A stretch of 64,000 bases of DNA from an uncultured Rhodospirillaceae bacterium (GCA_964566055.1 CAZMHI010000011.1:25851-89850); one strand, 5' to 3'. Shown: positions 16,814-58,387, counted from the first letter of the stretch. Program-made: numbers and translations. Notes: generated from the letters alone by a model not told the origin.

Positions 16814-16853
16814 TCAAATTTCCTGGTATCGGGTTATATATATATGGTTCGGT

Positions 16854-17276: not shown

Positions 17277-17314
17277 AACAATCTCACCCTAAATTCTTTT
17301 GGAGCATTTTATAT

Positions 17315-33031: not shown

Positions 33032-34346
33032 CGCGTGCCGCCTCTTTGTTGGCCGTGAAATCAGGCTTGAACGGCATCGCGCCACCGAACTTTTTAGCCG
33101 CCAGGAAATGCAGATCATCAGCGGTGACTTGGCTGCGGCCTTCGCCCCGAACATAGTCTTCGGCCCGCCGGCGGATCATACGGCGCAAAAAGCCTGGAAT
33201 TCTGGTCAGCCGGGCTTCGGCGTCACCGGTCCACATCAGCGCCGATTGTTGTTCAGGCAAGGGCTGGATAACGGCTCCACCCACGGGCTCATAGCCGCAA
33301 AGGAAGTCTTCGCCCATCAAATTATCATCCCGTGCCAAAGGACGGGCGCGGCAACCGCCACACAGTTTGCTGTATTCGCACTCTCCACAGCGGCCTTCAA
33401 GTACAGGCTGGCGCAGCGCTTTAAACATCGGCGCATCCTGCCAAATCTCGGTAAATTTCCGATCGCGGATGGAGCCGACACTATCCTCGATATAGGGGCA
33501 GGCCGTGACCTCGCCTTCCGGTGTCACCCGGCAATAGCGGGAACCGGCAAGACAGCCGCCGGCTTCATAACCTTGCGCCAACGTAATCGGCCATTCGGGA
33601 TCAAGCTCCATCGCCATGCGTTTAAAGTGCGGTGCACATTTAGCCCGGATCAATAATTCAGGTTCGTCATGAGCCGCTTGAGTTACTTTACGCAAAACCT
33701 CTTCGTAAGTTTCTTGCGAGATATTGGTGACTTTTTCACCGCGTCCGGTACAGACCAAAAAGAATATGTTGAGCACCAAAGCACCTGAGGACCGAGCAAA
33801 AGCAATCATCTCATCCAGTTCTCCGGCATTGTCATCGGTGACCGAAAAATGCAGCTGGTGCGCGAGACCACCCTTACGGCAGGCATCAATACCGGCCATG
33901 GTTTTTTCCCAGGCTCCCAGAAATCCACGGAAATTGTCGTGATAAACAGGATCAAGCGAATCGAGGCTGATACCGACCCCGGCAACCCCGGCTTCTTTTA
34001 GCCGAGCCACGCGCTCTTCTGTCAGCATCATGCCGTTGGTGCCGATCACCGTCATCAGGCCGAGATTAACAGCGTGCTCGGCCAACTCGTCCAAATCTGG
34101 GCGGACCAGCGGCTCTCCACCGGTCAGCACAACCATGGTTTCGCCGCCGAGTGCATTGATCTCATCCAGACAGGCTTTAACTTCATCGGTGGTGAGTTCA
34201 CCCGCCTCGCCGGCCTGCCGGATACCGGCATCAAGATAACAATGGGCGCAGGCTTGATTACAGCGCCGCGTTAAGTTAAGCGCGACCAGAAACGGCTGCT
34301 CTGCCTTAACGTCTTTCACATTATCTTTGGTGCGGAGCAGGTTCAC
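33021..34346 (-). CDS. Radical SAM/SPASM protein (NirJ/AhbD-like) with a C-terminal PCP_red-like domain
   Basis: CNQACAHC radical-SAM cluster motif, GGEPL, and a SPASM Cys cluster (CGECEYSKLCGGCRARP). The tail WTGDAEARLTRIPGFLRRMIRRRAEDYV is PCP_red-like. Likely GTG start at 34346 with a GAGG SD; the track ORF runs to 34424. Confidence 0.8.
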   Translation of the reverse strand: MNLLRTKDNVKDVKAEQPFLVALNLTRRCNQACAHCYLDAGIRQAGEAGELTTDEVKACLDEINALGGETMVVLTGGEPLVRPDLDELAEHAVNLGLMTVIGTNGMMLTEERVARLKEAGVAGVGISLDSLDPVYHDNFRGFLGAWEKTMAGIDACRKGGLAHQLHFSVTDDNAGELDEMIAFARSSGALVLNIFFLVCTGRGEKVTNISQETYEEVLRKVTQAAHDEPELLIRAKCAPHFKRMAMELDPEWPITLAQGYEAGGCLAGSRYCRVTPEGEVTACPYIEDSVGSIRDRKFTEIWQDAPMFKALRQPVLEGRCGECEYSKLCGGCRARPLARDDNLMGEDFLCGYEPVGGAVIQPLPEQQSALMWTGDAEARLTRIPGFLRRMIRRRAEDYVRGEGRSQVTADDLHFLAAKKFGGAMPFKPDFTANKEAARDDA

Positions 34347-34356
34347 GGACGTCGCC

Positions 34357-36564: not shown

Positions 36565-36578
36565 TTGATGTGGATCAA
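36565..36578 (-). promoter_or_regulatory. Perfect FNR/CRP-family box TTGAT-GTGG-ATCAA
   Basis: Read directly. Box centre is 61 nt upstream of the ATG at 36510, with a TAATTT hexamer 32 bp downstream of the centre (class II geometry). Confidence 0.6.
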
Positions 36579-36826
36579 ACCTGCAAATTAGAGCTATTCT
36601 GATCTTTGCTGATTTTGGGCCGGTTATTGGACCGAATTTGGCCGATGACCAGAAAGAACAGTCCTGTGGCAATTAAAAAAATGTAGAAATTGTCGATCGC
36701 GTTGCCGGCCCGCCAGGACAGCATGGCATCCAAAGCACCGACAAAGATTAGCGCCACGCCAAACATCCGCGGAATAACACCACGCCTTGGGGTAACTTCC
36801 TGTTCCGTGTTTGACGCTGCCTGCAT
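36575..36826 (-). CDS. Small two-TM membrane protein
   Basis: 83 aa. Two hydrophobic helices (MFGVALIFVGALDAML, FYIFLIATGLFFLVIG). Starts 3 nt after the upstream stop. Confidence 0.5.
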   Translation of the reverse strand: MQAASNTEQEVTPRRGVIPRMFGVALIFVGALDAMLSWRAGNAIDNFYIFLIATGLFFLVIGQIRSNNRPKISKDQNSSNLQV

Positions 36827-36829
36827 TTT

Positions 36830-38353
36830 CTAGCCCTCCCGCTTGGCCGCCGCGTTGCGCGCCCACCAGCCTAAAAGGCCGAGAAGCAGAAGTGCAACAA
36901 TCACGCCGGAAATAATCGGCTTGGTGCTGGTTGGCGGCTTGAGCAACAGCCAGTACCAGGTGGTCAGAGTGTAGCTCCGCGCTTTTTCAGAGTTGCTGCC
37001 ATCCCAGGCGGCAAAAGCGATGGGCGTGAAACGGCCTTCTTCAAATTGAATATCGCTGCCGGTTTCAGCCGTCTTAAGTGCACGCTTAACCACGACCCGC
37101 CAGGAGCCGTTTTTGTAAACGCCTTTTGCCGTCAGGCCGGCTGCTTTGCCATCGCGGGCCTCAAGATTTTCAAGCCCCTGGCCATCGGCGAGTTCAACTT
37201 TAGCCGGCGACTTGGTTGTACCGGCGCTCCATTTCCAGATATTGACCGGCTTGGCGCCGTCACCGGCAACAAAATAGGGTTTCTCTAGACCTTCCGGTGC
37301 TATGACCGGCAACTGAACAGCAACCGCATCTTCAGTCATATTTTCATCAGCGATTTTGGCCGCGGCTTCGTCACCCGGAATACTTTTGGTGCGGTCATCC
37401 CATTCGAGCAAAAAGGCGACTTCTTTGTCGCTATAAAGCGCCTGAGCTGTAATGGTGTCATTGGCCATTTTAAAGAAACGCGGCTTGAGAATGATTTGCG
37501 GCACCATGGCAAAGGTCGTTGGTTGCGCGACCTCCCAAGCTTTGTCATCGGGTCCTGTCGGCAAATCACCTTCTACTTTTTCGGCAATCACCACAGTATT
37601 TTCAGCGCGCACGGTACGTTTTGTTTTGGCCAAAGACTGCACATAGTTGGCAACATGCCAGCGTTCTTCGATCGAAAGTTTTTTGGCGCTTTTCTCATCG
37701 GCAAATGTCGGCATTTGTGTGCCGGGAATACCGACGGTCACACGGGCAAAGATGTCTTTTGGATCATTACTGCCTCTGAAAGTCCAAGGCTTGGTCAGAT
37801 TGCGCGGCCAGGTGCGCGCACCTGCATCGTCTTTTAAGCGCTTAACTGCATCACCTTTACCGTCCTCACCATGGCACTCGGAACAACGCTCCTTGTCATG
37901 GAATAGCTTTTTACCTTGAGCGATACTTTCCGGCGAGGTGGCAACTTGGGTGCCATAATCCAATTGTTCTTCCGGCTTTTCGTCTTCAAGCTCAGCAAAC
38001 ATTTTGAGATAGAGCACGAGGTCCCACATTTCCTGCTCTTTGAGGATATCGGCCCAGCCCGGCATGGCAGTGCCCGGCATACCATCTTTAATCATGCGGT
38101 AGATATCATCATCATTCGGTACCGGATCTTCTTCACCGGTGGTTTTGATCTTATAACCGGCTTCGGTGAAATCACGCGGTGGCGGGTTGAGACGCTCGGC
38201 GCCAGGGCCGTCACCATCACCTTCTTCGCCGTGACACATCAGACAGCGTTTTTCATAAATTTTCTTACCGTTCTCGGCATTACCCGGGGCGGCAATTACT
38301 GGTGAGCCCAGCAATATGGTCAGAAGCGCAGTTAAGGAAATTAACAATTTCAT
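36830..38353 (-). CDS. Di-haem cytochrome c fused to an EB_dh/DOMON-like domain and a C-terminal TM anchor (module 1)
   Basis: Signal peptide. CLMCH and CSECH. C-terminal half has EB_dh-like motifs (DAVAVQLP, VNIWKW, NGSWRVVVKRAL, FAAWDGSN). Terminal TM helix IISGVIVALLLLGLLGWW. Confidence 0.75.
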   Translation of the reverse strand: MKLLISLTALLTILLGSPVIAAPGNAENGKKIYEKRCLMCHGEEGDGDGPGAERLNPPPRDFTEAGYKIKTTGEEDPVPNDDDIYRMIKDGMPGTAMPGWADILKEQEMWDLVLYLKMFAELEDEKPEEQLDYGTQVATSPESIAQGKKLFHDKERCSECHGEDGKGDAVKRLKDDAGARTWPRNLTKPWTFRGSNDPKDIFARVTVGIPGTQMPTFADEKSAKKLSIEERWHVANYVQSLAKTKRTVRAENTVVIAEKVEGDLPTGPDDKAWEVAQPTTFAMVPQIILKPRFFKMANDTITAQALYSDKEVAFLLEWDDRTKSIPGDEAAAKIADENMTEDAVAVQLPVIAPEGLEKPYFVAGDGAKPVNIWKWSAGTTKSPAKVELADGQGLENLEARDGKAAGLTAKGVYKNGSWRVVVKRALKTAETGSDIQFEEGRFTPIAFAAWDGSNSEKARSYTLTTWYWLLLKPPTSTKPIISGVIVALLLLGLLGWWARNAAAKREG

Positions 38354-38365
38354 CAGTTCAGCCCC

Positions 38366-39133
38366 CTACTCGTGTCCAAAACTTCGGGGCTGATACCCGG
38401 TGTAGTCATAAAGAAATAAGATAACCTGCCAGATTTCCTCTTCGCTGAGAAAGTCCTGCCAGATCGGCATGGAAGAGATCCAAGGCGCGGCCTCTTTCGG
38501 CAGGCCCGGCCCGCCGGTAGCAATACGCCAGAACAGGTAAGATTCCTGGAGCTGTGCGATGGTGCCGACATCCTGGAAATTGGCCGGTGTCGGATTGAGC
38601 CCAGCCGCATAAGGGCCTTTGCCATCGAGCTTGTCACCGTGACAGAAATGACAGTTCTGGATATAGACCTTGGCGCCCTCGGCGACGTGTTCTTTGAATT
38701 TTTTGGGGTCTTCTTTCTCCAGCTTTCGCAGAGGATTCTCAAGCTTGATGACATCGTAGCGTTTACCATAGGCCTTCATCGAGGTTGGCGGCGCTGGATG
38801 AATGGTGCGGAGCTCAACCGGTGCTTCAAAGCTTAAGCTGGTTTTCTCGTACGTGTACCAGCCCGCCAAGACAGGCAGGATGATGAACACGACGTTGCGG
38901 ATCATCTTTTTATTGGGGTCTTCGACCAAGGCTTTGATCGGCCCGACAAGTTCGCGGGTACTTTCTTCGGTCGCGGTGAACACCATAAAGACGCCGGCCA
39001 CCACAAAGAACATATACATCGTCAGCAGGCTCGACGGGATAACGTGGTCAAGCATAACATCGAAGACCAGGACGAAGCCGTAATAGACAATGGCCAGAAC
39101 GAGAACGGCTTGAAGTAACTTAGGTATTTTCAT
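38366..39133 (-). CDS. Three-TM-anchored mono-haem cytochrome c (module 1)
   Basis: 255 aa with a strong SD (GGGAGGGG). Three N-terminal TM helices, then CHFCHGDKLDGKGP in a class I cytochrome c domain. Confidence 0.75.
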   Translation of the reverse strand: MKIPKLLQAVLVLAIVYYGFVLVFDVMLDHVIPSSLLTMYMFFVVAGVFMVFTATEESTRELVGPIKALVEDPNKKMIRNVVFIILPVLAGWYTYEKTSLSFEAPVELRTIHPAPPTSMKAYGKRYDVIKLENPLRKLEKEDPKKFKEHVAEGAKVYIQNCHFCHGDKLDGKGPYAAGLNPTPANFQDVGTIAQLQESYLFWRIATGGPGLPKEAAPWISSMPIWQDFLSEEEIWQVILFLYDYTGYQPRSFGHE

Positions 39134-39145
39134 CTCAGCCCCTCC

Positions 39146-39958
39146 CTATTTCAACTTGGCCAAATAATCGACCAGCATTTCAAGCTCGCTGGCATAGAGC
39201 TGAGTGCCGTAATCTTTCGGCATTAAGTCTTTTTCATAGCCTTTGGTCAGTTCTGCATTCGGATCAAGGATCGATATTCTGATATGAGCGGCGGAACGAA
39301 GTGCGCCGATTTTTGTCAGATCAGGTCCTTGCTCGCCTTCATCTTCACCGACTTTGTGACAAGCGCCGCAGCCGACCTCTGAAAGGATATCTTCAACGCT
39401 TTCATACGGTTTGCGTTGCTCCTCTTCCTCGTCATCCGCAGCATCACCGGCGTCTTCCGGAATTTCGACCGTAACCTCGACACCACCCAATTGTTGGAGG
39501 TAAGCGGTAACAGCGGCAAGCTCGACTTCGTTGAGACCGATACTGCCGGTTGAAGCATCCGGCATCGGGCTGACCGCATCATTGGTGCCTTTTTTACCGA
39601 AGCCAGCGACCACAAAAGCCGACGGTTTGACCATCGATTCCATGACGTAGCTTTCAACATCTGTTGCTTCGCCCTTATAGCGTGGGTCTTTGAGACGCGC
39701 TGCGGTGACGGCCGCTGTTTTTTCAAGCAATGGGGCACGGCCGCCAAGCGCATTGTGGCAGAGCGTACAGGTGCCCTTGCCTTTATATAATTTTTCACCG
39801 AGCGCCAGGAATTGATCCATGGTCAAAGAGCTGAGATCGACTTTCTCCTCGGTCGGCGGTGGCGCGGGCTCGATCCGGGGAATACCGAAATTAGCAAATC
39901 CGGCAAATAGGCCAACGACCAGCACGCTAAAGAAAGCGACTTTCAGGAAATTTTTCAT
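39146..39958 (-). CDS. Membrane-anchored di-haem cytochrome c (module 1)
   Basis: 270 aa with an N-terminal anchor and CTLCH and CGACH motifs. ATGA overlap with the upstream CydA-like gene. Confidence 0.75.
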   Translation of the reverse strand: MKNFLKVAFFSVLVVGLFAGFANFGIPRIEPAPPPTEEKVDLSSLTMDQFLALGEKLYKGKGTCTLCHNALGGRAPLLEKTAAVTAARLKDPRYKGEATDVESYVMESMVKPSAFVVAGFGKKGTNDAVSPMPDASTGSIGLNEVELAAVTAYLQQLGGVEVTVEIPEDAGDAADDEEEEQRKPYESVEDILSEVGCGACHKVGEDEGEQGPDLTKIGALRSAAHIRISILDPNAELTKGYEKDLMPKDYGTQLYASELEMLVDYLAKLK

Positions 39959-41850
39959 CCCTTACCTCCTGCCGCGGCGATATTGTCGACCGCTTCAGGC
40001 GCCCAGTAATTCTGAGGCTCGGTTTTCTTGGCGCTGATCTGGCTGAGCCAGAAAACAAAGATCACCATGGAGAGGAAAATAATCGTGCCGATGGAAACCA
40101 CATTGGCGGCAAAGCCCATGGTCGGCGTGAAGGCATCGGCGGAATTATCCCGCATGATATCGACGACATGCCAGTGTTGGCGGATACCGGAGCGGATATA
40201 CCCCATCAAACCCATCAGCCAGGTGAAGGAGACAGCCAGCAGGAACAGCGCATATTGCGAACGTTCGGGTACACGGCCCCATTTCAGCGGCGCCACTTCC
40301 TTGGCATTTTTATACATAAAGCTGTCGATGAGAATACTGATGACAATTATCACCAGGGTCGTACAAACTTGCGGGATTGAAGCGGCGATCTTATAGACCG
40401 TATTGGTGAAGTAGCCGTAATAGGTACCAAGAATGAAAATATTAATGACGCCGGTGACAAATAGCGCCACTTGCGCGGCATTACCGGCATTGACCCAGCT
40501 TACCGTCGCAACTTTATTGGCGCGCCGGTAGAACAGAAAGCTGACAAAGGTCGCGAGGATCATTAAATTCACAGCCGTGTTCTTGGCCGGCATAATACCA
40601 AAGGGTCCAAGATATTTGTGATAGGGCCCGCCAAGCGCTTTCAGCTCTTCGTTGGTCAACACCAGGGTATGCGGTGTGAACCAGACCAAGAAGGCACCGA
40701 CAATCACAATGGCGATATATTTAATATATTTGTAATAGCGCACCGCGCCATCGCTCCGGCCCATGCAGCACCAGAGATAATAGTTTGCTGACAGGAACAG
40801 TGCGCCGATCAGCACGGCCTGAATGATAAATAGCCAGGCGAAAATACCACCCATCAAAGTGATGCCCATTTGCTGGCTGAAAGCATAAATTTCTGTGGTC
40901 AGGTAATAGCCGGCAAAGGGTAGAGGCAGCAGCGCCGAAATAGCGATAAAGTTGGCGGTATAGCCCATCCAATCGTAATGCGCGCGGTCTTCGGCTCGGC
41001 TTGAGCTTAAGAACTTGAAAGCTGCATAGGCGCCGACGATGGAGCCGCCAAAGGCCACATTGGCCACCACCCGATGCAAATTGATCGGGTTCCAGAGATG
41101 GTTCTGAATGGCCGGCCAGATATCACCGGCAAAGACACCTGCCGCATCGACGCCTTCCGGGCTCATCATGAATGTCAGCCAGGAATTGGCGAGCAGCATC
41201 AGCATGGTGCCGACAGCATTGAGCAACAGGCCGATCGTCAGATGGACCCATTTGCGGTCGCCACCCTGCAGCCAGTGCCAGCCATAATAATAGAGATAGA
41301 GGCAGGCGCTTTCGGCGAAGAACAGTACGGCATACCAGAACATACTGTCTTTAAAGATGGTCGCGAGGTAGCTCCAGAGATCGGGATAGAACAGCATCAG
41401 GGAGAACGACAACAAGCCGCCCAAGATAGCCGTCAGGGAATAGGCCGTAATACTGACTTTAATAAACTCATAAGCCATATTGTCGTAGCGCCGGTCGCGC
41501 GTGCGCATACCAATAGCTTCAATAATGAAAACAAAAATCGGCACAGCAAGGACAAAGGCCGCAAACCAGAGATGCAATTGGGCCACCAGCCAGATAACAA
41601 CCCGGCTGTTGACGCCTTTGACGGTCGGATAGCTGGCGAGCGTGGTTTGAGGGGCTGGACCATATGGCGAGGTGGCTTCTGTATCACTGTCAGTGTTTTC
41701 AGCTGCCGGTTCTGCCGCTTGCTCAGCAGCCTGCACCGCTACATCAAAAAATTCACCGCTAAAATTTACCGGTGACAGAAATAACATCAAAGCCAGGAAA
41801 GCTATACCGGCTATTTTAAGTCCCCACCTGTTTTCATTTTTAAACTTCAT
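39955..41850 (-). CDS. Cytochrome bd subunit I (CydA)-like polytopic membrane protein lacking a Q-loop (module 1)
   Basis: CydA-like helix 1 (AQLHLWFAAFVLAVPIFVFIIEAIG), ANSWLTFMMSPEGVD, and NLHRVVANVAFGG. There is only a short loop where canonical CydA has the Q-loop. ATG at 41850; the track TTG start is at 41868. Confidence 0.7.
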   Translation of the reverse strand: MKFKNENRWGLKIAGIAFLALMLFLSPVNFSGEFFDVAVQAAEQAAEPAAENTDSDTEATSPYGPAPQTTLASYPTVKGVNSRVVIWLVAQLHLWFAAFVLAVPIFVFIIEAIGMRTRDRRYDNMAYEFIKVSITAYSLTAILGGLLSFSLMLFYPDLWSYLATIFKDSMFWYAVLFFAESACLYLYYYGWHWLQGGDRKWVHLTIGLLLNAVGTMLMLLANSWLTFMMSPEGVDAAGVFAGDIWPAIQNHLWNPINLHRVVANVAFGGSIVGAYAAFKFLSSSRAEDRAHYDWMGYTANFIAISALLPLPFAGYYLTTEIYAFSQQMGITLMGGIFAWLFIIQAVLIGALFLSANYYLWCCMGRSDGAVRYYKYIKYIAIVIVGAFLVWFTPHTLVLTNEELKALGGPYHKYLGPFGIMPAKNTAVNLMILATFVSFLFYRRANKVATVSWVNAGNAAQVALFVTGVINIFILGTYYGYFTNTVYKIAASIPQVCTTLVIIVISILIDSFMYKNAKEVAPLKWGRVPERSQYALFLLAVSFTWLMGLMGYIRSGIRQHWHVVDIMRDNSADAFTPTMGFAANVVSIGTIIFLSMVIFVFWLSQISAKKTEPQNYWAPEAVDNIAAAGGKG

Positions 41851-41872
41851 TCTGCTACGCGCCTTCAAATCT

Positions 41873-41989
41873 TTACTGGTGGTAGAACAGGGATATGCCC
41901 TGCAAATTCATGAGGCCCCAATCGAGCACGAAAAAGCCGACGCCGCAGATTGCGAGCGAAACAATAAATGGTACAAGATAGTCTTTCAC
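41873..41989 (-). CDS. Candidate 38-aa single-TM mini-protein
   Basis: My own translation: GTG start preceded by GGGAGAA, product (M)KDYLVPFIVSLAICGVGFFVLDWGLMNLQGISLFYHQ. Immediately upstream of the CydA-like gene. Confidence 0.4.
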   Translation of the reverse strand: MKDYLVPFIVSLAICGVGFFVLDWGLMNLQGISLFYHQ

Positions 41990-42014
41990 CGGTGGTTCTC
42001 CCTCTCTGCCCGGC

Positions 42015-42122
42015 CTAAAACAATACGACCCAAAAGGCCGCACAAGTGGCGATCAGCACGGCGATAAACAGCGCCGGGCCAAACCAGGTAGCTTCGTTAT
42101 TTTGTGGAGCCTCTGTATTCAT
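42015..42122 (-). CDS. Candidate 35-aa single-TM mini-protein
   Basis: My own translation: ATG at 42122, product MNTEAPQNNEATWFGPALFIAVLIATCAAFWVVLF. Weak SD. Confidence 0.35.
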   Translation of the reverse strand: MNTEAPQNNEATWFGPALFIAVLIATCAAFWVVLF

Positions 42123-42318
42123 GTTTTTAAACCGTCTCAATTACTTGTTTTTTTGCTGGCATTGAACAACCTGGATTCGAAGGATAAAATGGGGCCAGAA
42201 ACCAGTGAGAAAGAAGCATGATCAATTTTAAAAATTTACGGCCCATTGACTGGGTCATCTTTGTCGGCGCCGCCGTTAATTTCGTGGTGATCGTGCTGAT
42301 CCTCGCTTTTTTTGTTTT

Positions 42319-42708
42319 CTAGCCTGCCTTACCTTTACACTTACACAGACCACGCAAATACTTGATCAAGCCATTGGCATCGGCGTCTGAGATCGTCTTA
42401 CCCCAGGGCGGCATCAATGGTGATTTACTTTGCGACGGGCCGCCATCCATGACGATGCCGCGGATATAATTATCTGTGAGCTTGCTCATCTCTTTAGCAT
42501 TGGTGAAATCCCGCGGTGTAACCGGGAAATCCTTGGTCACATTGGGGCCCTTGCCTTTGCCTTCGAGGCCATGACATTGGGCGCAGTAGAATCTAAAAGT
42601 TTCTTCGGCTCCCGCTGCTTTTGCAGTTTCAGTGTTAATAAACCAGGCCAAGCCAAATACGGCGGCCAGGAGAGAAATTTTGCTTAGTTTTTTCATTGCT
42701 CTAGCCAT
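42319..42708 (-). CDS. Periplasmic mono-haem cytochrome c
   Basis: 129 aa. Signal peptide and CAQCHGLEGKGKGP. Alternative ATG at 42696 with better SD spacing. Confidence 0.8.
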   Translation of the reverse strand: MARAMKKLSKISLLAAVFGLAWFINTETAKAAGAEETFRFYCAQCHGLEGKGKGPNVTKDFPVTPRDFTNAKEMSKLTDNYIRGIVMDGGPSQSKSPLMPPWGKTISDADANGLIKYLRGLCKCKGKAG

Positions 42709-42710
42709 CC

Positions 42711-43373
42711 TTATTTGAGGTTGCTGACATGTTTAGCGACGTTTTTGAGATCCTTATCCTTCAAAATACCCGCGAAGGTCGGCATCGCTTTGAACGGTTT
42801 GAAGTGAGTGGGATTTTTCAAATAGGCGTAAATCCAATCGGGGTTGAGCCGTTTGCCGACGCCAACCAAGGTTGGGCCGCTGAAGCCACCGGTAATCTTG
42901 CCTTTTTTGCTGGCCGATTGATGACAGCCGGTGCAGGGCATTTTCTTGGTGAAAATCTTTTTACCTTTAAGACTTTTCTTTGGCTTAATAACACCCGCTT
43001 TAACTTCGCCGGTGGTTTTACTCATCAGGAAGTCAGCAACATTGGCGGCATCGCCACCGGATAATTTCGGATGGTCGCCCGCGTTCTTTTTGGTCAGCGA
43101 GTTATAAGCCAAATGGCGGATCGGTTTTGGGTCCTGGAGCCAGCCCTTGAGCCAGGCTGCCTGGAACTTAGATCCTGCATACCAGAGTTCAGGGCCTTTT
43201 TTGGCCATTTGGTCGGCAATGCTTTTTTCTTTAGCCGGACCCTCGGTATAGTGGCAACCGGTACATTTTTGAGCTTCGAAGGCAGCTTTACCAGCGCCTG
43301 CGTCAGCATGTGCCGCACCAGCGACAAAGCCGAAGAGGCTCATTGCTGCAATTGCAGATATGATAATTTTCAT
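42711..43373 (-). CDS. Periplasmic di-haem cytochrome c
   Basis: 220 aa. Signal peptide and two CTGCH motifs. Confidence 0.8.
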   Translation of the reverse strand: MKIIISAIAAMSLFGFVAGAAHADAGAGKAAFEAQKCTGCHYTEGPAKEKSIADQMAKKGPELWYAGSKFQAAWLKGWLQDPKPIRHLAYNSLTKKNAGDHPKLSGGDAANVADFLMSKTTGEVKAGVIKPKKSLKGKKIFTKKMPCTGCHQSASKKGKITGGFSGPTLVGVGKRLNPDWIYAYLKNPTHFKPFKAMPTFAGILKDKDLKNVAKHVSNLK

Positions 43374-43410
43374 TTTCCTACTCCTTTTTTTTGCTGGCCA
43401 AGCGGCTTAT

Positions 43411-45075
43411 TTATGCCGGTTTAGCCTGCGCCTTTTTCATCAGCCAGAACCCTAATCCGCCTGTGATCAGGAAGGCCAAAATCGCATAGACATAAACTTC
43501 CATCGGCGTCGGCGCTTCAAGAAAGACGAAATGCCACGTCGACAAACTCATAATTTTGCCATGCTCACCGTTCGAACCATCCCAGGCATTGATCGACATG
43601 GGAATGAACTTACCGGCACTAAATTGAATATCGTTACTGTCTTCGGTAACCAGCGGACGCTTCATGACAACGCGCCAGCGGCCGTCTTTCCACTCCGAAG
43701 TGGATGTAACCTGTTGCTGATCTTTGGCTTGCGCCCGGGCTGGTTGCTGGTAGCCGCGTGCGGTTGCTTCCTCAGCACCCGATTTAGCTTTTTCCGCCAG
43801 ATCAGCTTTCCAAACCCAGAGATTAACCGCATTGGAAGAACTGCCGCGGAGGAAATGGGGCTTCTTGGTGCCGGGCTTAAACTTGGCCGGGAATTGCAAA
43901 GCCACCGAATCCCGGAAGGTTTCAAGAGCACGCGGGATCATATCATTGGCGGCAACATAAGAATTATAGGCGCCAACTTTGCTGATATCCGCAGTCTTGA
44001 ACTCCTTGTCCTTTTTGTGAGTGATGTCCTTGAAGGGATCATCCCACTCCATCAGGAAAGAGATTTCTTTGTCGTTGAAGGCCGCCTTGATAGTGACCAG
44101 TTCAATGCCCGGATTCTGCCAGCGGGGAGCCGCAACAACCTGGCCGGCCAGACGCATATCCATCGGCTCGGCTGTCTGCCAGGCCTCATCATCCGGTTTA
44201 GCGGGTACGTCACCTTCAACTTTTTTGGCTTTGAGCACTTGATGAGAGGTCGGATTATGCTGCAGTGATTTGATGAAATTAGCCAACGCCCAGCGGTCTT
44301 CATTAGAGAGCGCCTTAGCGAAGGACGGCATCGGCGTGCCGTTAATACCGGTCGAGAAGCGCATATAAATATCTTCGACGTTGCTGCCGCCTTTAATCTT
44401 CCAGGGCAGCGTGACGTTACGAATACGGATCGGGAAACCCCAATCATCTTTACGGTCAAAAGCTTTCTGGCCATTACCCCGGCCTTGCTTGCCGTGACAT
44501 TCCCAGCATTTTGCTTTGAGGAAAATTTCTTTACCCTTGGCGACAAGCTCTTCGCTATAGGGCGGCAGATTTGATGGCAGCGTGACCAGCTTATTGGTCT
44601 TAATCGGATCAAGCTCTTCGTCATCAAATTCCTGAGCGAAAGTTTTGATATATGCAATAACCTGCCAGCGCTTCTCTTCGCTCAAGCCATTTTTAATAAT
44701 ATCGCTATCAAACGCCTGCATACCGGTGCCTTGGAGGCCACGGCTGACAGTGCGGAACAGATCAGCATCGGTCGGCAGTTCACCCGACTGGGTTTTCCGG
44801 AACTTAAAGGTACCGAGGGTGAAATCGCGGGGCCGTGGATCCATATAATCGGCAGCCGGTCCGTTGCCATCGCCCAACAGGCCGTGGCACATGACGCAGC
44901 GGCGGGAGTAGATTTCCCGGCCTTTTTCAACAAAAGCTTCTGTCGCTTCCGGCATTGGCTTGGCGGCAACATCGGCTGCTGAAACCGGCGTGGCAATAGA
45001 GGCCGATAAGGTAAGCACTGCAGCAGCGAAAGTGAATTTCAAAAATGTCACTATATTTCTTAAAGTTCCTCGCAT
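43411..45075 (-). CDS. Di-haem cytochrome c fused to an EB_dh/DOMON-like domain and a C-terminal TM anchor (module 2)
   Basis: 554 aa. CVMCH and CWECH. EB_dh-like motifs (DSVALQFP, VNLWVWKA, DGRWRVVMKRPL, INAWDGSNGEHGK). C-terminal TM. Paralogue of 36830..38353. Confidence 0.75.
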   Translation of the reverse strand: MRGTLRNIVTFLKFTFAAAVLTLSASIATPVSAADVAAKPMPEATEAFVEKGREIYSRRCVMCHGLLGDGNGPAADYMDPRPRDFTLGTFKFRKTQSGELPTDADLFRTVSRGLQGTGMQAFDSDIIKNGLSEEKRWQVIAYIKTFAQEFDDEELDPIKTNKLVTLPSNLPPYSEELVAKGKEIFLKAKCWECHGKQGRGNGQKAFDRKDDWGFPIRIRNVTLPWKIKGGSNVEDIYMRFSTGINGTPMPSFAKALSNEDRWALANFIKSLQHNPTSHQVLKAKKVEGDVPAKPDDEAWQTAEPMDMRLAGQVVAAPRWQNPGIELVTIKAAFNDKEISFLMEWDDPFKDITHKKDKEFKTADISKVGAYNSYVAANDMIPRALETFRDSVALQFPAKFKPGTKKPHFLRGSSSNAVNLWVWKADLAEKAKSGAEEATARGYQQPARAQAKDQQQVTSTSEWKDGRWRVVMKRPLVTEDSNDIQFSAGKFIPMSINAWDGSNGEHGKIMSLSTWHFVFLEAPTPMEVYVYAILAFLITGGLGFWLMKKAQAKPA

Positions 45076-46040
45076 TATTCAGACTCCGGAATTCGGGGAG
45101 TCTTTTCGGCGAGGTCGTATTCCGCCAAAATAATCTTCCACCGTTCTTCATCGGTGAGGTTTTTCTTCCATTCCGGCATGGCCGAATCCCAAGGCGTTGC
45201 CTCGGTTGGCAGGCCTGGGCCGCCATTCATAACCCGCCAGAAGGTGTAACCTTCGACGATGGTTTCAATGGTGCCGTTATCGGTGAAGTTGATCGGGCGC
45301 AGTTTAAAGCCGTCAGCCATCGGGCCGTCACCGGCAACGCTGTCGCCATGGCAGGGGCGGCAGTTCATGGCGTAGAGTGTGCGGCCTTCATAGAGATCGA
45401 TTTGATGCAGCACTTCCTTGGCAGACGCTTCGGTGATTTTTTCAGCTTTTAATTCAGCCAGCAGTTTCTTAACTGATTCACCCGGCAAAAAATCTAAGGT
45501 ATGATCCGGATCAGCCTCTTCTTTCCAGGCATCGATGTCTTTCTGCACTTGCGGAATGAAGGTGATTTCATCCTCCTTAACCTGTTCGATAAAGGCCTTA
45601 ACCCGGTCTGGGGTCGGCTCGTTGTAAGGATTTTTCATGCTTTCAAATTTCTTGGGAAAATTTGATGATGGATGCTGGATGCGGAGACTCGACGGCAATT
45701 GCACTTTCGGCACGGTAATGTCATAGACCTGCCAGCCGATGACGGCCGGCACCGCGACCAGAACTGCCAAGCGAAAGGCCTTGGTGTACTCGCCCCGCAG
45801 CATTTTCCGGATCGGACCCCAGAACTCTTCCATGAATTCATCAGAAAATGTGACCAAAGCAAACAGTGCCACGCACGTTAGGGTCATATAGATAAAGACC
45901 AAGGTGCCCGGCACGGTCAGCGGAAAGGGCAACGCGGTAATACTGCGGGAAACCGCCGGGATTACCCATTTAACAATGCCGTAGAACACCAAAATAGTCG
46001 CGACGACAGACCAAAAACGATTTATTTTAAATTTACTCAT
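45075..46040 (-). CDS. Three-TM-anchored mono-haem cytochrome c (module 2)
   Basis: 321 aa. N-terminal TM helices and CRPCHGDSVAGDGP. Paralogue of 38366..39133. 1-nt stop/start overlap with the downstream gene. Confidence 0.75.
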   Translation of the reverse strand: MSKFKINRFWSVVATILVFYGIVKWVIPAVSRSITALPFPLTVPGTLVFIYMTLTCVALFALVTFSDEFMEEFWGPIRKMLRGEYTKAFRLAVLVAVPAVIGWQVYDITVPKVQLPSSLRIQHPSSNFPKKFESMKNPYNEPTPDRVKAFIEQVKEDEITFIPQVQKDIDAWKEEADPDHTLDFLPGESVKKLLAELKAEKITEASAKEVLHQIDLYEGRTLYAMNCRPCHGDSVAGDGPMADGFKLRPINFTDNGTIETIVEGYTFWRVMNGGPGLPTEATPWDSAMPEWKKNLTDEERWKIILAEYDLAEKTPRIPESE

Positions 46041-46055
46041 CTTTGTTCATCCGCC

Positions 46056-47039
46056 CTATTTTTTCTTGCCTTTTTGCATCAACATGAAGGAAAGAACATC
46101 TTGATAGTCCTTCACCGTCATTTCTTCCGATAGATCATCCGGCATGATGCTTAAAAGTTTGTCTTGAGTGATTTCCTTGATGTCGGATTTCTTAATTGAA
46201 ACTTCGTCGCCATCTTTGGTAACGAGTTCAACGGCGCCGTCTTCTTCACCCGCTTTGAGGCCGACGACTTTGCGGCCATCTTTTTTAACTACGACAAACG
46301 TCTCAAAGCCTTTTGTGATACTTTTTGCCGGCTCAAGGATGGCTTCAGAAATAAACTTGAGCCCCTTAGTTCCAACTGTTGAGAGATCAGGTCCGACATC
46401 ACCCGGCTCACCTTCAAGCGAATGACAATCGCCGCAAGTTTCTTCATAGACTTCCTTGCCATGCGCCGGATCACCACCACCAGCCGCCGAGGCGACAGCG
46501 ATTTTACCGTAAAACCCTTGCGTGATTTCGCTCGGATTGTTGATCTCAGCGATATCAAATTCACCGCCTTGCGCTTGCATATAAGCGGCTGTCGCCTTGA
46601 TCTCATCCAGGCTCAGGGAGATCGGCGGGGCATAGACCACCGCCATTTCATTTTTGTATCCTTTGACGACGTAGGCACCGGGATCACTCAGGCTTTCAAC
46701 TATGTAATCAAGCGCCGTATACTTCTTGCCGGTTTTTTCCGAGCGTTCCTTAGCACGTTCAACCGCACGGGCACCCATCGGCAGCGGGAATTTTTCACCG
46801 AACTGACCGTGATTGGGACCACGCACCGCACTGCCCCGGTCACCAACTGAGTGGCAGGTGAAGCAGCGGCCTTTGCCCCAGTAAATCGCTTCGCCGCCTT
46901 CCGGTGTAACTTCAACTGCACCGGTCGCAGCAGCTTTTTTCTCGCCGCCCGTTAATTTGGTGACGGAATGGCCGACCCAGTTAAAGACGCCGAAAACCAC
47001 CAACAAGAAGATAAATACTTTTCCAACAGCTTTTGCCAT
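46056..47039 (-). CDS. Membrane-anchored di-haem cytochrome c with a Planctomycete/Verrucomicrobia-type haem-binding C-terminal domain (module 2)
   Basis: 327 aa. Anchor, CFTCH and CGDCH. The tail ILEPAKSITKGFETF...LSIMPDDL...DVLSFML resembles the PVC-type CxxCH domain. Confidence 0.7.
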   Translation of the reverse strand: MAKAVGKVFIFLLVVFGVFNWVGHSVTKLTGGEKKAAATGAVEVTPEGGEAIYWGKGRCFTCHSVGDRGSAVRGPNHGQFGEKFPLPMGARAVERAKERSEKTGKKYTALDYIVESLSDPGAYVVKGYKNEMAVVYAPPISLSLDEIKATAAYMQAQGGEFDIAEINNPSEITQGFYGKIAVASAAGGGDPAHGKEVYEETCGDCHSLEGEPGDVGPDLSTVGTKGLKFISEAILEPAKSITKGFETFVVVKKDGRKVVGLKAGEEDGAVELVTKDGDEVSIKKSDIKEITQDKLLSIMPDDLSEEMTVKDYQDVLSFMLMQKGKKK

Positions 47040-47050
47040 AGAGTTATTCC

Positions 47051-49243
47051 TTACTCGCCCGGCTGTTCGCTGGCGGTGGGTGATGGTTGGACTTCAAGTT
47101 CATCGTGATCACCCTCATGCTCATGGGCGACCAGGCTGCCGATCCAGAACATAAAGGCAATGCCGATCATAAAGACGACGAAACTCATGCCGACCATTTG
47201 GGTCATGGTGAAATTGCTTGGGGTAAAGGACCATTCCGAGGTATCGCGCATGATGCCAAAGATGTGCCAATCACCGCGGAGACCTGAGCGAATAAAGCCC
47301 ATCAGGCCCATATTCAGCGTGATCACAAAGGTCAGCAGCAAGAGTGCAAATTGGCTGCGGGTGGTCATCTTGCCCCATTCCATGGGACCGATTTCCTTGG
47401 CAGATCTAAAGAGGTAAAGATCAATCGCAGTGACCAGGATCAAGCAGGCAATCAATTGCAGGAACTGAGCAACAGCAACGTTCCTCAAGAACGGTGAAGC
47501 CTGTTCCATCACCACAAAGCCATAGACACCTAAGAATATCGTCACATTAAAGGCCGTTACCGCCATATAGAGGTATTGCGCAAATTTACCCCGGTCGCGT
47601 AGCGCCAGCAGCACCGATATCACGGCTACAACACAGTTAAAGATCAAGAGATAGCCGACGGTACGGAAAAACTCAGCCCGGTCAGCCGGCAGATCGAGAT
47701 GCGCCGGATCCATGGTGATCAACGTCACCGCATACTGGCCGACGATAAAGACCGCCAAGGCGCCAGCCAGGGAAATTACTACTGCCGGCGCGCGGCCTTG
47801 CTGTGAAATCGGCACAATGTCGCTTTTATTGCCACGCCGGTACAGCAGGAAACTGAAGAAGGTCGCCAGAATAATCAAATTGATCACGGCGTTCTTAGCC
47901 GGCATCAGGCCTAAGAATTTAAGTGTCGGATGATATTGCGAGCCGCCCATTTCACTCACTTCCTGACCGGTCAACGGCAGGTTGTGCGGAGTCAGCCAGA
48001 CGGCGAAGGAGACACAAAGCGCAAACAATATATATTTGATGTATTTGTAATAGCGATCAGAGCCCGGAATACGGGTCATACCACTCCAAAGATAGTAGTT
48101 GGTGATCAGGAAGATCGAGCCCACCAGCAGCGCCTGAATGATAAAGGTCCAGGAAAAGTCGCCGCCCATCATATTGTTACCCATGACGGCACTGTTGGAA
48201 TAAACCTCGCGACCGAGATAATAACCGGCAAAGGGCAGCGGGATCAGGGCGGCAATAGCAACCAGATTGGCGATATAGCCCATCCAGTCGTAATGGGCTT
48301 TGTCCGCCTGATTCTTGGAGCCGATAAATTTCACGGCGGCATAGGAGCCTGCGACCAACCCACCAAAGGCCAAATTGCCAAGCATGCGGTGGACGGCAAT
48401 CGGTGTCGCCAGGATATTTTCAAAAGCCACCCAAACATGACCGGTTAAGCGGCCGGCCTCATCAACACCAGCCGGGCTCATCATGAAACCAGCCATTGAG
48501 TTGGCGGCCATCATGATTGCCGTACCGACAACGTTCAACATGATACCGATGAAGATGTGCGTACTTTTGAGGTCCTTCATTATATAGAAACCGATGGACA
48601 TCGGCAGCAGATACAAGAGCGCCATAAACACCCGAGTATCACTGCGCATTTCCCAGCCGATAACATCGAAGAAGAACAGGACAGTTACAATAAACAGCGC
48701 CACGCCAATGGCTTTGAAAATCATCTGCAAACGCGCGCTATAGGGCGCACGGTTCTTCATGGCGTTCCAGCCATAGTAATAAATATAGAGCGCAAAAGTT
48801 TCAAAGAAGAACAGTATTGCGTAGACAAACATGACGTCTTTGAAAGTGCCCGCCATATAGCCCATGAATGTCGGGTAGAGCGAGAATAAGGCAAAAGCCA
48901 GCATACCGCCAAAGGCCGCCGTGGTTGCGTAAGCAACGCTTAGCAAGCTGGTAAATTCATACGCCAGCTTGTCGTAACGCTGGTCATTACTGCGCCAGCC
49001 GACAATTTCGATGATGACAGCGAACAACGGTACACCCAGCACGAAAGCACCGAAAAACAGATGCATTTGCGCCAGGAACCAGACAACTTTCCGGGAATCT
49101 AGTCCCAGAACCTGGCGGTAGACATTGGCTTCCTGCGCCAGGGCTGGAAAAGCGAAGAATACAATCGCAATGAGTGCGCCGGCTATGATGGCCCGGCGAC
49201 GCCTCGCATTGGTCAAGAAAATGGGTTCACGAGATGACTGCAA
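47051..49243 (-). CDS. Cytochrome bd subunit I (CydA)-like polytopic membrane protein lacking a Q-loop (module 2)
   Basis: 730 aa. TTG start with a GGAGTAGG SD. AQMHLFFGAFVLGVPLFAVIIEIVG, ANSMAGFMMSPAGVD, AVHRMLGNLAFGG. Paralogue of 39955..41850 with long shared stretches (YYKYIKYI, NL.ILATF.SFL.YRR.NK). Confidence 0.7.
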   Translation of the reverse strand: MQSSREPIFLTNARRRRAIIAGALIAIVFFAFPALAQEANVYRQVLGLDSRKVVWFLAQMHLFFGAFVLGVPLFAVIIEIVGWRSNDQRYDKLAYEFTSLLSVAYATTAAFGGMLAFALFSLYPTFMGYMAGTFKDVMFVYAILFFFETFALYIYYYGWNAMKNRAPYSARLQMIFKAIGVALFIVTVLFFFDVIGWEMRSDTRVFMALLYLLPMSIGFYIMKDLKSTHIFIGIMLNVVGTAIMMAANSMAGFMMSPAGVDEAGRLTGHVWVAFENILATPIAVHRMLGNLAFGGLVAGSYAAVKFIGSKNQADKAHYDWMGYIANLVAIAALIPLPFAGYYLGREVYSNSAVMGNNMMGGDFSWTFIIQALLVGSIFLITNYYLWSGMTRIPGSDRYYKYIKYILFALCVSFAVWLTPHNLPLTGQEVSEMGGSQYHPTLKFLGLMPAKNAVINLIILATFFSFLLYRRGNKSDIVPISQQGRAPAVVISLAGALAVFIVGQYAVTLITMDPAHLDLPADRAEFFRTVGYLLIFNCVVAVISVLLALRDRGKFAQYLYMAVTAFNVTIFLGVYGFVVMEQASPFLRNVAVAQFLQLIACLILVTAIDLYLFRSAKEIGPMEWGKMTTRSQFALLLLTFVITLNMGLMGFIRSGLRGDWHIFGIMRDTSEWSFTPSNFTMTQMVGMSFVVFMIGIAFMFWIGSLVAHEHEGDHDELEVQPSPTASEQPGE

Positions 49244-49286
49244 TTACCTACTCCGCTTTACGTATTGAATTAGCCGAAACTGATTG

Positions 49287-50069
49287 TTACTTGGCCTTAA
49301 AGGAGAAATTTGCAGCTGCTTTGCCGCCTCCCTTGACGGTGACTTTTGATTTAATGACACCGAGACGCGGATGCCATGCCTTGACCGTGTATTTGCCCGC
49401 TGGAACGTTATCCAATGAATACGATCCATCATCTTTAACAACAACAGCATAGGGATTTTTTGGAGCCATCATGTAACCGAACATGAAGTTGTGAGCTTCA
49501 CAGTTAATGGCAATGTAAGGAGAGCGGCGCGGTTTCAAATCTTGTTTGATGTCGCCTGGATCAGGCTGGCCAAAATTGAACATTGTGCGTTTGACGACGC
49601 GTTTCTTTTCAACGCCAATCATTTCGCGCGTGTTGATATTGTGCAGTACGCCTTTGTCACTGTTGCGGATAATTACCGGACCGGGCTGAATAACTTGCGC
49701 CCAGGGAGTGAAACGGCATTTTTCCTGATTGATCAGATAATTACCGCCTTTGGGCTTACCCCATTTTTTACCGGCTTTGATTTTATGAATAAAGACGAAA
49801 GTGCCGCGAAGGGCACCATCTTTAACATCAATCCAAACCACTTCCCGCTCACCTTTACCGCAGACTTCGGGGTTTTTAGTGATCAGGATTTTTTCGACAC
49901 CGTCAGCAGGCACGGCGCCACTGAAAGTAACTTTACCAGCGATGCTGCCGCCATTTGATACGGCACCTGCTTTATATTTGGATTTGGCCGCCAAGGCATC
50001 TGTGGCAAGAGCAGCAGTAATTAACGCGCCGGCTGCAGCTACAACTGCTATTTTCGATGAGAATTTCAT
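49287..50069 (-). CDS. Periplasmic cupredoxin-like (type-1 Cu ligand pattern) protein with a CarboxypepD_reg-like C-terminal domain
   Basis: Signal peptide. GVLHNIN ... INCEAHNFM gives the H...C-x2-H-x2-M ligand pattern seen in amicyanin. The C-terminal segment DDGSYSLDNVPAGKYTVKAWHP is CarboxypepD_reg-like. Confidence 0.55.
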   Translation of the reverse strand: MKFSSKIAVVAAAGALITAALATDALAAKSKYKAGAVSNGGSIAGKVTFSGAVPADGVEKILITKNPEVCGKGEREVVWIDVKDGALRGTFVFIHKIKAGKKWGKPKGGNYLINQEKCRFTPWAQVIQPGPVIIRNSDKGVLHNINTREMIGVEKKRVVKRTMFNFGQPDPGDIKQDLKPRRSPYIAINCEAHNFMFGYMMAPKNPYAVVVKDDGSYSLDNVPAGKYTVKAWHPRLGVIKSKVTVKGGGKAAANFSFKAK

Positions 50070-55195: not shown

Positions 55196-55207
55196 TAGTC
55201 GTCTCTC

Positions 55208-55810: not shown

Positions 55811-55834
55811 GATTTTATCCTCACTCCTAGCCCA

Positions 55835-56953: not shown

Positions 56954-56963
56954 CTCACGGCTC

Positions 56964-58091: not shown

Positions 58092-58387
58092 AGACGGTTT
58101 CCTCCGTCGTGCGAAACACACTGAAGTTTTGTGGGAAATTTAAAAGTTTGAGAAATAGGGTTGGCAAACACAAAAAAACCGCCGGTTAATTTTCTTTTTT
58201 CACCAGCGATTGGAAAGAAATAGGAATCGGATATGGATATAGACTTATCCGTATAGCAGCCGCGATTATGGCAACTCTCTTCCACTTATTTATCCCTCCC
58301 CATAAATCAACTACCGGCCCGCAGAAATTTTCTACTAACGGTCCGGTATTCTTTGAATAGGTATAATTAAATTGTGGGAAATGGGCA

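Follow-up and report, generated by a model that had tools for sequence, protein, structure and literature searches.

What do the two adjacent respiratory gene modules encode that lie in a 64,000-nucleotide (nt) stretch of DNA from an uncultured Rhodospirillaceae bacterium (GCA_964566055.1, CAZMHI010000011.1:25851-89850), and which electron acceptor do they serve? Each of these modules, termed A and B, combines a gene for a CydA-like protein with three genes for membrane-anchored c-type cytochromes. The initial annotation of the stretch had read them as cytochrome-c-dependent reductases of the cytochrome bd superfamily or, alternatively, as an electron-transfer hub for the adjacent molybdenum (Mo) enzyme. 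All coordinates are positions in this whole stretch, referred to as the window, and all genes lie on the minus strand unless stated otherwise. Judged by residues, spacing and gene content, each module is of the OR-N2 type, also called NIDE0901-like (Nitrospira) or TO_1-like. The favoured reading, held with somewhat better than even confidence, is that they would form two OR-N2 isoenzyme complexes acting as cytochrome-c-fed O2 reductases, within a low-oxygen gene island that also encodes a probable iodate reductase.

All eight module genes are uninterrupted open reading frames (ORFs), separated within both modules by gaps of -4 to 15 nt. Module A consists of CydA-like protein A (47051..49243, 730 aa), an N-terminally anchored di-haem cytochrome c (46056..47039, 327 aa, CxxCH at 59 and 202), a mono-haem cytochrome c with three hydrophobic segments (45075..46040, 321 aa, CxxCH at 227) and a di-haem cytochrome c with an EbdC/NxrC-like EB_dh domain and a C-terminal transmembrane (TM) anchor (43411..45075, 554 aa). 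Module B has the same order, with CydA-like protein B (39955..41868, 637 aa, 14 predicted TM helices), an anchored di-haem cytochrome c (39146..39958, 270 aa), a mono-haem cytochrome c with two hydrophobic segments (38366..39133, 255 aa) and a di-haem c, EB_dh and C-terminal TM protein (36830..38353, 507 aa). Two starts are possible for the CydA-like B gene, TTG 41868, which gives the 637 aa, and an in-frame ATG that lies 18 bases downstream. In pairwise BLASTP, the A and B copies share 45% identity for the CydA-like proteins (E = 5e-129), 28% for the anchored di-haem cytochromes (E = 3e-16), 32% for the TM and mono-haem proteins (E = 3e-43) and 35% for the EB_dh proteins (E = 1e-95). The four paralogue pairs are homologous and colinear, as the initial annotation had described, and by this comparison their colinearity is far beyond chance. 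The three cytochrome subunits of each module contain 2, 1 and 2 CxxCH motifs, equivalent to five c-haems on three membrane-anchored subunits, which confirms the association with c-type cytochromes.

Membership of the CydA-like proteins in the bd superfamily is supported by profile, fold and residue comparisons. The Pfam hidden Markov model Cyt_bd_oxida_I (PF01654) matches A and B with 44.6 and 66.3 bits, both above the gathering score of 26.2, and the match is restricted to the N-terminal part (profile positions 3-143 in A and 2-226 in B, of 418). Single-sequence and profile searches of the PDB returned CydA chains only, over the first helices; a profile of 122 A- and B-type sequences found 5doq_A (3e-12), 9r2g_A (5.5e-8) and 6rko_A (0.005). 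A first AlphaFold2 (AF2) model of B, based on 29 sequences, was too poor for use (predicted local distance difference test, pLDDT, 56.7), while a model based on 122 sequences reached a pLDDT of 70.9 and a predicted TM-score (pTM) of 0.69, with residues 80-310 at 78-93. This model shows an N-terminal anchor followed by 14 long helices. In a Foldseek search with this model, CydA chains take all of the first ten places (E = 1e-8 to 4e-5), and CydB chains occur among the weaker matches. The hydropathy profile of A has about 15 segments, including extra inserted ones.

The absence of the quinol-binding Q-loop, claimed in the initial annotation, is borne out by the early end of the Pfam match and by the model of B, in which no extended periplasmic loop follows TM6 and further helices come directly after it. 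The idea that only about 15 residues occupy the place of the Q-loop did not hold; instead, three extra predicted helices are found there, together with a 28-residue loop (397-424) before the Met-bearing helix, which is the sole sizeable loop of the model and carries the invariant residues H400 and H417. No CydB gene was detected, as Cyt_bd_oxida_II (PF02322) matched neither the module ORFs nor any other scanned window ORF, with a scan that covered the module ORFs and nearly all window ORFs of at least 200 aa on coding pattern. The claim that CydX is missing is true by homology, although two conserved tiny TM ORFs sit between the modules.

Alignment of B to the solved CydA proteins of Geobacillus and M. 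smegmatis places H99 at H21/H19 (E. coli H19), Y179 at E101/E99, E186 at E108/E107 and H265 at the H186 position, while M426/N430 come from a conserved IMPAKN motif. The key residues of B are H99, Y179, E186, Y193, Y195, H209, H265, M426/N430, S560 and W566, and A carries the same signature residues (among them H61, Y141, E148, H229, H285 and M447/N451). H61 of A is invariant in three aligned A-type sequences, and the His19-equivalent position is a histidine in 30 of 33 full-length cluster representatives. The equivalents of His19, His186, Met393, Glu107 and His126 are kept, whereas those of Glu99 and Glu445 are Tyr and Ser in both A and B (Y179 and S560 in B). Four further histidines, H297, H400, H417 and H567, are invariant in both paralogue families. 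Overall, the haem-ligating residues have not been lost, and neither a Q-loop nor a cydB gene came to light, the three points on which the initial annotation had made its reading depend. The possibility that A or B is a degenerate CydB-like partner was rejected, as both keep all key residues.

Murali, Gennis & Hemp 2021 (bioRxiv 10.1101/2021.01.16.426971) divide the bd superfamily into qOR, OR-C and OR-N, and describe OR-N1 and OR-N2 as 14-TM proteins. According to the same study, OR-N2 operons contain multiple cytochromes c and an ebdC homologue, often without a second CydA-like gene, and the OR-N2 signature of its Supplementary Table 6 comprises H99, Y183, E190, Y197, Y199, H213, H269, M430/N434, S563 and W569. 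The corresponding pattern (H19=H, E99=Y, E107=E, H126=H, H186=H, M393=M/N, E445=S and W441=W) is present in both A and B, and B matches the OR-N2 reference TKS59798.1 in residues and spacing. The 14 TM helices are found in the AF2 model of B, next to the about 15 hydropathy segments of A, and each module contains several cytochromes c plus an EbdC-like EB_dh subunit. The four-gene module is not new in kind, as it has already been described as OR-N2/TO_1. Lucker et al. (2013) had reported 14-TM bd-like proteins in which three helices replace the Q-loop, and TO_1 was found at the 98th expression percentile in the Ca. Manganitrophus papers. Surveys of Nitrospinota and Nitrospirales treat OR-N proteins as putative cytochrome-c-oxidising terminal oxidases that are uncharacterised, and the NIDE0901-like OR-N was proposed to be the main terminal oxidase of Nitrospirales, since most genomes lack haem-copper oxidases. 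The OR-N literature agrees with the initial annotation that the family is biochemically uncharacterised, and a literature search for an OR-N structure found none.

The present modules share with the OR-N2/NIDE0901-like proteins the 14 TM helices, the missing Q-loop, the residue signature and its spacing, and the operon with multiple cytochromes c and EbdC. They differ from OR-N2 as described in that two complete OR-N2-type modules stand in tandem, instead of an OR-N1 and OR-N2 pair. Unlike their Nitrospira counterparts, they are hosted by marine Pseudomonadota metagenome-assembled genomes (MAGs) and are linked to an iodate-reductase (Idr)-like Mo enzyme rather than to nitrite oxidoreductase (NXR). 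A further difference is the A-specific insertion of 58 aa with two extra hydrophobic segments (residues about 153-212, between TM3 and TM4), which is absent in B and, from residue spacing, in the OR-N2 reference. The TO_1 complex of Ca. Manganitrophus noduliformans, compared by description, has the same domain composition, with a bd-like protein, cytochromes c and a periplasmic cytochrome b of the complex iron-sulfur molybdoenzyme (CISM) type, but occurs as one module, in a Nitrospirota bacterium that oxidises Mn(II), whereas two modules are present here. As to length, A-type CydA-like proteins are about 720 aa, including the single-module versions of Nitrospinota and Nitrospirae MAGs, and the family cluster representatives P0362, P0364, P0366 and P0369, with 800-890 aa, suggest fused or further extended variants.

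Canonical CydABX of E. coli, Geobacillus and mycobacteria shares with A and B the fold of the first helices, the equivalents of H19, H186, M393, E107 and H126, and the periplasmic N(S/A)W...P.G motif. In contrast to CydABX, A and B have no Q-loop and neither a CydB nor a CydX homologue, carry Tyr for E99 and Ser for E445, and possess five or more extra helices as well as partner c-type cytochromes. The OR-C proteins, in which CydA is fused to haem c domains, likewise lack the quinol site and presumably use cytochrome c as donor. However, they have about 8 TM helices and CxxCH in CydA itself, while A and B have at least 14 TM helices; membership in OR-C was rejected, since neither A nor B contains a single CxxCH. 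The cbb3-type oxidase, a cytochrome-c-fed terminal oxidase for low O2, has mono- and di-haem c subunits anchored in the membrane, small TM subunits and its own maturation genes, among them one for a copper chaperone. It is a functional analogue only, as its catalytic subunit belongs to the haem-copper superfamily and not to the bd superfamily.

The accompanying cytochromes differ in detail between the modules. In the module A di-haem cytochrome c, the second domain matches TIGR02603, and the module B EB_dh subunit shows homology to PDB 6h5l_B (E = 1.6e-46) in its di-haem part. The EB_dh domains were confirmed by Pfam in both modules. Alignment gave no clean correspondence between the haem ligands of EbdC, Met108 and Lys201, and residues of these domains. 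Close to the aligned positions, H407 and M509 are conserved among A-type EB_dh subunits; B-type subunits have Y360 and a variable residue there. Because H407 and M509 occur only in the A-type, the modules may differ in whether or how the EB_dh domain binds haem b. Between the modules lie c220, a di-haem cytochrome c of 220 aa (42711..43373), and c129, a mono-haem cytochrome c of 129 aa (42319..42708). Both accompany module B, even in a locus that has only this module (L086).

The modules are embedded in a continuous same-strand gene array from 58121 to 31038, a respiratory gene island of 27 kb with a largest intergenic gap of at most 196 nt. In the direction of the minus strand, it encodes two di-haem cytochrome c peroxidases (CCPs), a twin-arginine translocation (TAT) Rieske subunit, an AioA-like Mo subunit, a HEAT-repeat protein and a secreted 260-aa protein, followed by module A, c220, c129, the tiny ORFs t2 and t1, module B and an 83-aa protein, and finally by a universal stress protein (USP) with PCP_red stretches, a radical SAM/SPASM protein, a HemY-like oxidase and SCO1/SenC.

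The first four of these genes (52523-58121) show idrP2-P1-B-A synteny. They encode the CCPs (56964-58121 and 55835-57031), the TAT-signal Rieske subunit (55208-55810) and the AioA-like Mo subunit with a 3Fe-4S Rieske_3 domain (52523-55195). The iodate reductase genes idrABP1P2 were defined by the synteny of an AioA-like subunit, a Rieske subunit and two peroxidases (Reyes-Umana et al., PMC8692401), and the AioA-like Mo subunit, the TAT Rieske protein and the two di-haem peroxidases of the iodate island are likewise adjacent here. The Mo subunit scores 408 bits, just above the NCBIfam arsenite-oxidase cut-off of 359, but its scores against solved AioA structures reach only 240-267 bits. Proteins of the cultured Roseibium album, Rhodovibrionaceae A322 and Polycladidibacter share 76-78% identity with it, with 78% for the Roseibium (Labrenzia) album protein, and Labrenzia alba (= Roseibium album) is listed as a putative iodate reducer in Table S3 of Reyes-Umana et al. 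(PMC8692401). Because of the idr synteny and the identity to a listed putative iodate reducer, the adjoining Mo enzyme is best read as a putative, indeed probable, iodate reductase. The CCP-CCP-Rieske-Mo-HEAT order recurs in Roseibium album and Rhodovibrionaceae A322, both of which were checked. In neither cultured strain is an OR-N module found with the Idr-HEAT cluster, so Idr does not require OR-N modules.

The HEAT-repeat protein (50190-52520, 776 aa) corresponds to a HEAT/PBS-lyase-like repeat protein of about 780 aa that directly follows the idrA-like gene in Roseibium album and Rhodovibrionaceae A322 as well (L084, L085); no mention of it was found in the iodate-reduction texts consulted. 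Among the 80 closest loci (L004-L083), the CCP-CCP-Rieske-AioA-like cluster comes in two flavours: one with a Mo subunit 81-97% identical to that of the window and followed by the HEAT protein, and one with a Mo subunit of 54-59% identity, no HEAT gene and the gene for the 260-aa protein upstream of the peroxidases. The surroundings of published idr islands were reported to be poorly conserved (Reyes-Umana et al., PMC8692401). In contrast to these islands, the present cluster is joined to the HEAT protein, a protein with a copper-site-like pattern and two OR-N2 modules. A literature search combining iodate, idrA and cytochrome bd found no paper, and the linkage of Idr and OR-N2 in MAGs is unreported as far as the searchable literature shows.

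Homologues of the CydA-like proteins are abundant, with more than 7,000 database entries for B and nearly 5,000 for A, many of them 72-85% identical and from marine Alpha- and Gammaproteobacterial MAGs. At E <= 1e-30, the family comprises 308 clusters in a library of representatives clustered at 50% identity, and a scan with one genome per species found an A-type relative in at least 571 genomes, the closest being an uncultured Rhodospirillaceae MAG from a Tara sample. Synteny was analysed in the 80 loci closest to the window, a sample of these at least 571 genomes that is not random. A B-type gene follows the A-type gene in 45 of the 51 loci with at least 8.5 kb of downstream sequence, and an AioA-like gene with peroxidases lies upstream of the A-type gene in 49 of the 53 loci with at least 7.5 kb of upstream sequence. 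This linkage spans several classes and includes one Nitrospinota MAG. Loci with module A only were also found (L045, L055, L066, L077 and L080), and such loci occur in Nitrospinota, Nitrospirae and 'Deltaproteobacteria' MAGs. In the B-only locus L086, module B stands with c220, c129, a tiny ORF and the accessory genes, and OR-N2 modules without Idr are present in L045, L065, L077 and L086. As to origin, 79 of the 80 closest loci are labelled as MAGs, many from the Arabian Sea, the eastern tropical North Pacific (ETNP), Saanich Inlet and groundwater, and the remaining one ('Bacterium BMS3Bbin10', L039) also resembles a metagenome bin. No cultured organism with an A-type module occurs among these 80 loci.

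The most likely function of the modules is that of a cytochrome-c-fed terminal O2 reductase, because the residues are conserved and many Nitrospirales have no other oxidase. Electrons would enter on the periplasmic side, donated by c220, c129, further c-type cytochromes or the 260-aa protein with its copper-site-like pattern, and would pass via the anchored c-haems to a b558-like low-spin haem (H265/M426 in B, H285/M447 in A). From there they would reach the active-site haem or haems in the first four-helix bundle at H99 (B) or H61 (A), where O2 would be reduced to water with protons delivered through a channel that is retained in part (E186/H209 in B, E148/H229 in A). As in bd oxidases, charge separation would serve to conserve energy. 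The proposal of a cytochrome-c-dependent bd reductase in the initial annotation, with no Q-loop or CydB and with the ligands kept, thus survives as the leading reading, with O2 as the probable acceptor, and for the most part it agrees with what others have already hypothesised for OR-N. A and B more likely represent two isoenzyme complexes than one heteromer, because both have partner cytochromes of their own, both are found alone in other loci and neither shows degeneration. Both look catalytically competent from their residues, and the two modules are co-inherited and probably co-expressed. Subfunctionalisation is plausible in view of the A-specific insertion and the differing conserved residues of the EB_dh domains.

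Several observations weigh against O2 reduction by isoenzyme complexes. No OR-N member has been purified, and O2 reduction is deduced from conservation and from the physiology of other phyla. With Tyr and Ser in place of E99 and E445, the di-haem active site may be unlike the one in bd oxidases, and the invariant H297, H400, H417 and H567 together with SCO1 hint at a different or additional metal site. The EB_dh domains do not have the EbdC Met108 ligand at the aligned position, and only the A-type has a nearby His and Met. The C-terminal half of the B model is predicted with only moderate confidence. In addition, the near-constant linkage to Idr could mean that the modules serve Idr and not O2, and the loci in which it was counted are the closest ones rather than a random choice.

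A single heteromeric CydAA'-type supercomplex, in which A, B and their cytochromes assemble and each CydA-like protein takes the place of CydB, is held to be unlikely. Canonical CydA pairs with the fold-related CydB, whose chains occur among the weaker matches to the B model, CydAA' pairs were proposed for OR-N by Murali et al. and in the Nitrospinota and Nitrospirales papers, and A and B are adjacent in most of the loci analysed (45 of 51). However, A-only and B-only loci occur, every partner cytochrome is duplicated, and neither copy has lost the haem and channel residues, unlike b-type subunits. OR-N2 was also often found without a second CydA-like gene (Murali et al.).

Taken in a wider sense, the modules, the 260-aa protein and Idr might be one dedicated respiratory unit of uncultured bacteria from oxygen-minimum zones and groundwater. 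The bd-like complexes would respire O2, H2O2 or HIO arising from iodate reduction, or would be the terminal oxidase for an Idr-type enzyme that oxidises a high-potential donor such as iodide, and they would use a specially modified haem and possibly copper; this is a speculative proposal with a low probability. The modified haem would be made by the co-inherited radical SAM, PCP_red and HemY-like genes. The USP carries four PCP_red stretches (34357-36510) and is followed by an AhbD/NirJ2-like radical SAM/SPASM protein with a PCP_red domain (33021-34424), a HemY-like FAD oxidase (31634-33154) and SCO1/SenC (31038-31634). The USP-PCP_red, radical SAM-PCP_red and HemY-like genes come after module B in five of six B-centred loci and flank A-type modules in other loci, while SCO1 is present in the window and in some loci. 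This accessory set, which travels with OR-N2, suggests dedicated tetrapyrrole modification and copper delivery.

The 260-aa protein (49287..50069), which is predicted to be secreted, is always found with an A-type module. Its invariant residues are C70, C118, H143, C190, H193, M196 and H233, and the arrangement H143...C190-x2-H193-x2-M196, which resembles a type-1 copper site, is kept even in homologues at 37-41% identity. A profile search against the PDB matched only the C-terminal beta-sandwich, and neither a cupredoxin family nor a cupredoxin PDB entry was matched. It is the ligand pattern by which the protein resembles a cupredoxin.

Periplasmic Mo reductases are often encoded together with their own membrane electron module. 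By this analogy, the OR-N2 modules could be the electron input of the Idr-like enzyme instead of an oxidase, either as a quinol:cytochrome c oxidoreductase similar to alternative complex III (ACIII), whose quinol site would have escaped recognition, or as a route from the periplasm to quinone, which is judged improbable. The proposal draws on the Idr-like cluster upstream of the A-type gene in nearly all informative loci, across several classes and a Nitrospinota MAG, on the unbroken same-strand array that contains both, and on the ACIII-like role that Lucker et al. (2013) raised for bd-like proteins. It is difficult to reconcile with the lack of a Q-loop or known quinol-site residues and with the strict conservation of the O2-site His and part of the proton channel across the family. 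Moreover, the two cultured strains have the Idr-HEAT cluster but no OR-N module, and four loci have OR-N2 without Idr. The tie to the Mo enzyme, already suggested in the initial annotation, gains weight from the idr synteny and the linkage in 49 of 53 loci, in whichever direction it may work.

Quite improbable, too, is that the modules are obligate partners of iodate metabolism, which would consume O2, H2O2 or HIO produced by Idr or act as terminal oxidase for an oxidative Idr-type enzyme, for example with iodide as donor. In favour of this reading, the linkage counts are strong, and in the model for Pseudomonas sp. SCT the O2 that arises from HIO is respired by a terminal oxidase, a cryptic oxygen respiration. 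Elsewhere, OR-N2/TO_1 proteins accompany the oxidation of high-potential donors, namely nitrite via NXR and Mn(II), and oxygen-minimum zones (Arabian Sea, ETNP and Saanich Inlet) are the source of many of the MAGs. Nevertheless, this evidence is purely genomic, O2 was argued not to be an obligatory intermediate (Reyes-Umana et al., PMC8692401), and Idr clusters and OR-N2 modules are each found alone. Shared low-oxygen regulation, which the Idr linkage may reflect, would explain it equally well; the linkage may instead reflect functional coupling through electron supply or through consumption of O2, H2O2 or HIO.

For the preferred reading as isoenzyme complexes, the age of the duplication is relevant. 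A-type orthologues share 60-93% identity with A against 43-50% with B, the reverse pattern holds for B-type orthologues, which share 71-94% identity with B, and A-type and B-type genes constitute separate orthologue groups common to many classes. Since the DNA similarity between modules A and B is confined to 702 nt at 68%, the duplication is ancient, with the A+B block inherited across Alpha-, Beta- and Gammaproteobacteria and other MAGs. A tandem duplication that is recent, specific to this lineage and now diverging in the present genome, as the initial annotation implied, would agree with the identical gene order of the copies but is extremely improbable and was rejected on the protein identity of only 28-45% between copies, the limited DNA similarity and the orthologue groups across classes. 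Because A-only loci and the B-only locus L086 occur, the window therefore joins two old units, namely idr-HEAT-260aa-A and c220-c129-t2-t1-B-83aa-USP/rSAM/HemY-SCO1.

While the OR-N2 family itself is known, its regular joining to a cluster of the iodate-reductase type and to a dedicated maturation set is, as far as the searchable literature shows, unreported. OR-N proteins are regarded as the principal terminal oxidases of bacteria that oxidise nitrite or manganese, although none is characterised, and a pair of complete OR-N2 modules occurs widely in MAGs of marine Alpha- and Gammaproteobacteria. Their near-constant fusion to an iodate-reductase-type cluster represents a second ecological context for the OR-N family, that of oxygen-minimum zones. 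It bears on how the respiratory chain connects to iodate reduction and on whether O2 or peroxide is a real intermediate of this process. The tetrapyrrole-modifying genes, SCO1 and the tiny TM ORFs point to cofactors and subunits that expression of the complexes would require.

The tiny ORFs t2 and t1 lie in the 450-nt gap that precedes the CydA-like B gene, and each encodes a single TM segment. t2 (42015..42122, 35 aa) contains ...TWFGPALF..., and its homologues are found upstream of B-type genes on the operon strand in at least 27 loci. t1 (41873..41989, 38 aa from GTG) ends with ...LDWGLMNLQGISLFYHQ, is located 4 nt before the B gene and has a Shine-Dalgarno-like GGGAGA upstream of its GTG start; its homologues occur on the operon strand in at least 24 loci. 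Judging by their position, t1 and t2 may be small subunits. The 83-aa protein after module B (36575..36826) has two hydrophobic segments, and an ORF of similar size follows module B in related loci. Pfam and NCBIfam searches with the tiny ORFs and the 83-aa protein gave nothing significant. A third tiny hydrophobic ORF (42218-42322, plus strand, MINFKNLRPIDWVIFVGAAVNFVVIVLILAFFVF) has clear homologues in L012, L014, L030, L034, L042 and L044, with an inconsistent strand: it is on the operon strand in most loci and antisense in the window and L044.

An Rfam scan of the whole window gave no match, and promoter-like sites were found at the level of shuffled sequence. Terminator-like hairpins are in excess in the window and located inside genes. 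Outside the island, a third di-haem cytochrome c peroxidase gene (14695-15873) is part of the minus-strand region 14695-20245, beside genes for a response-regulator/guanylate-cyclase and a CHASE5 hybrid histidine kinase.

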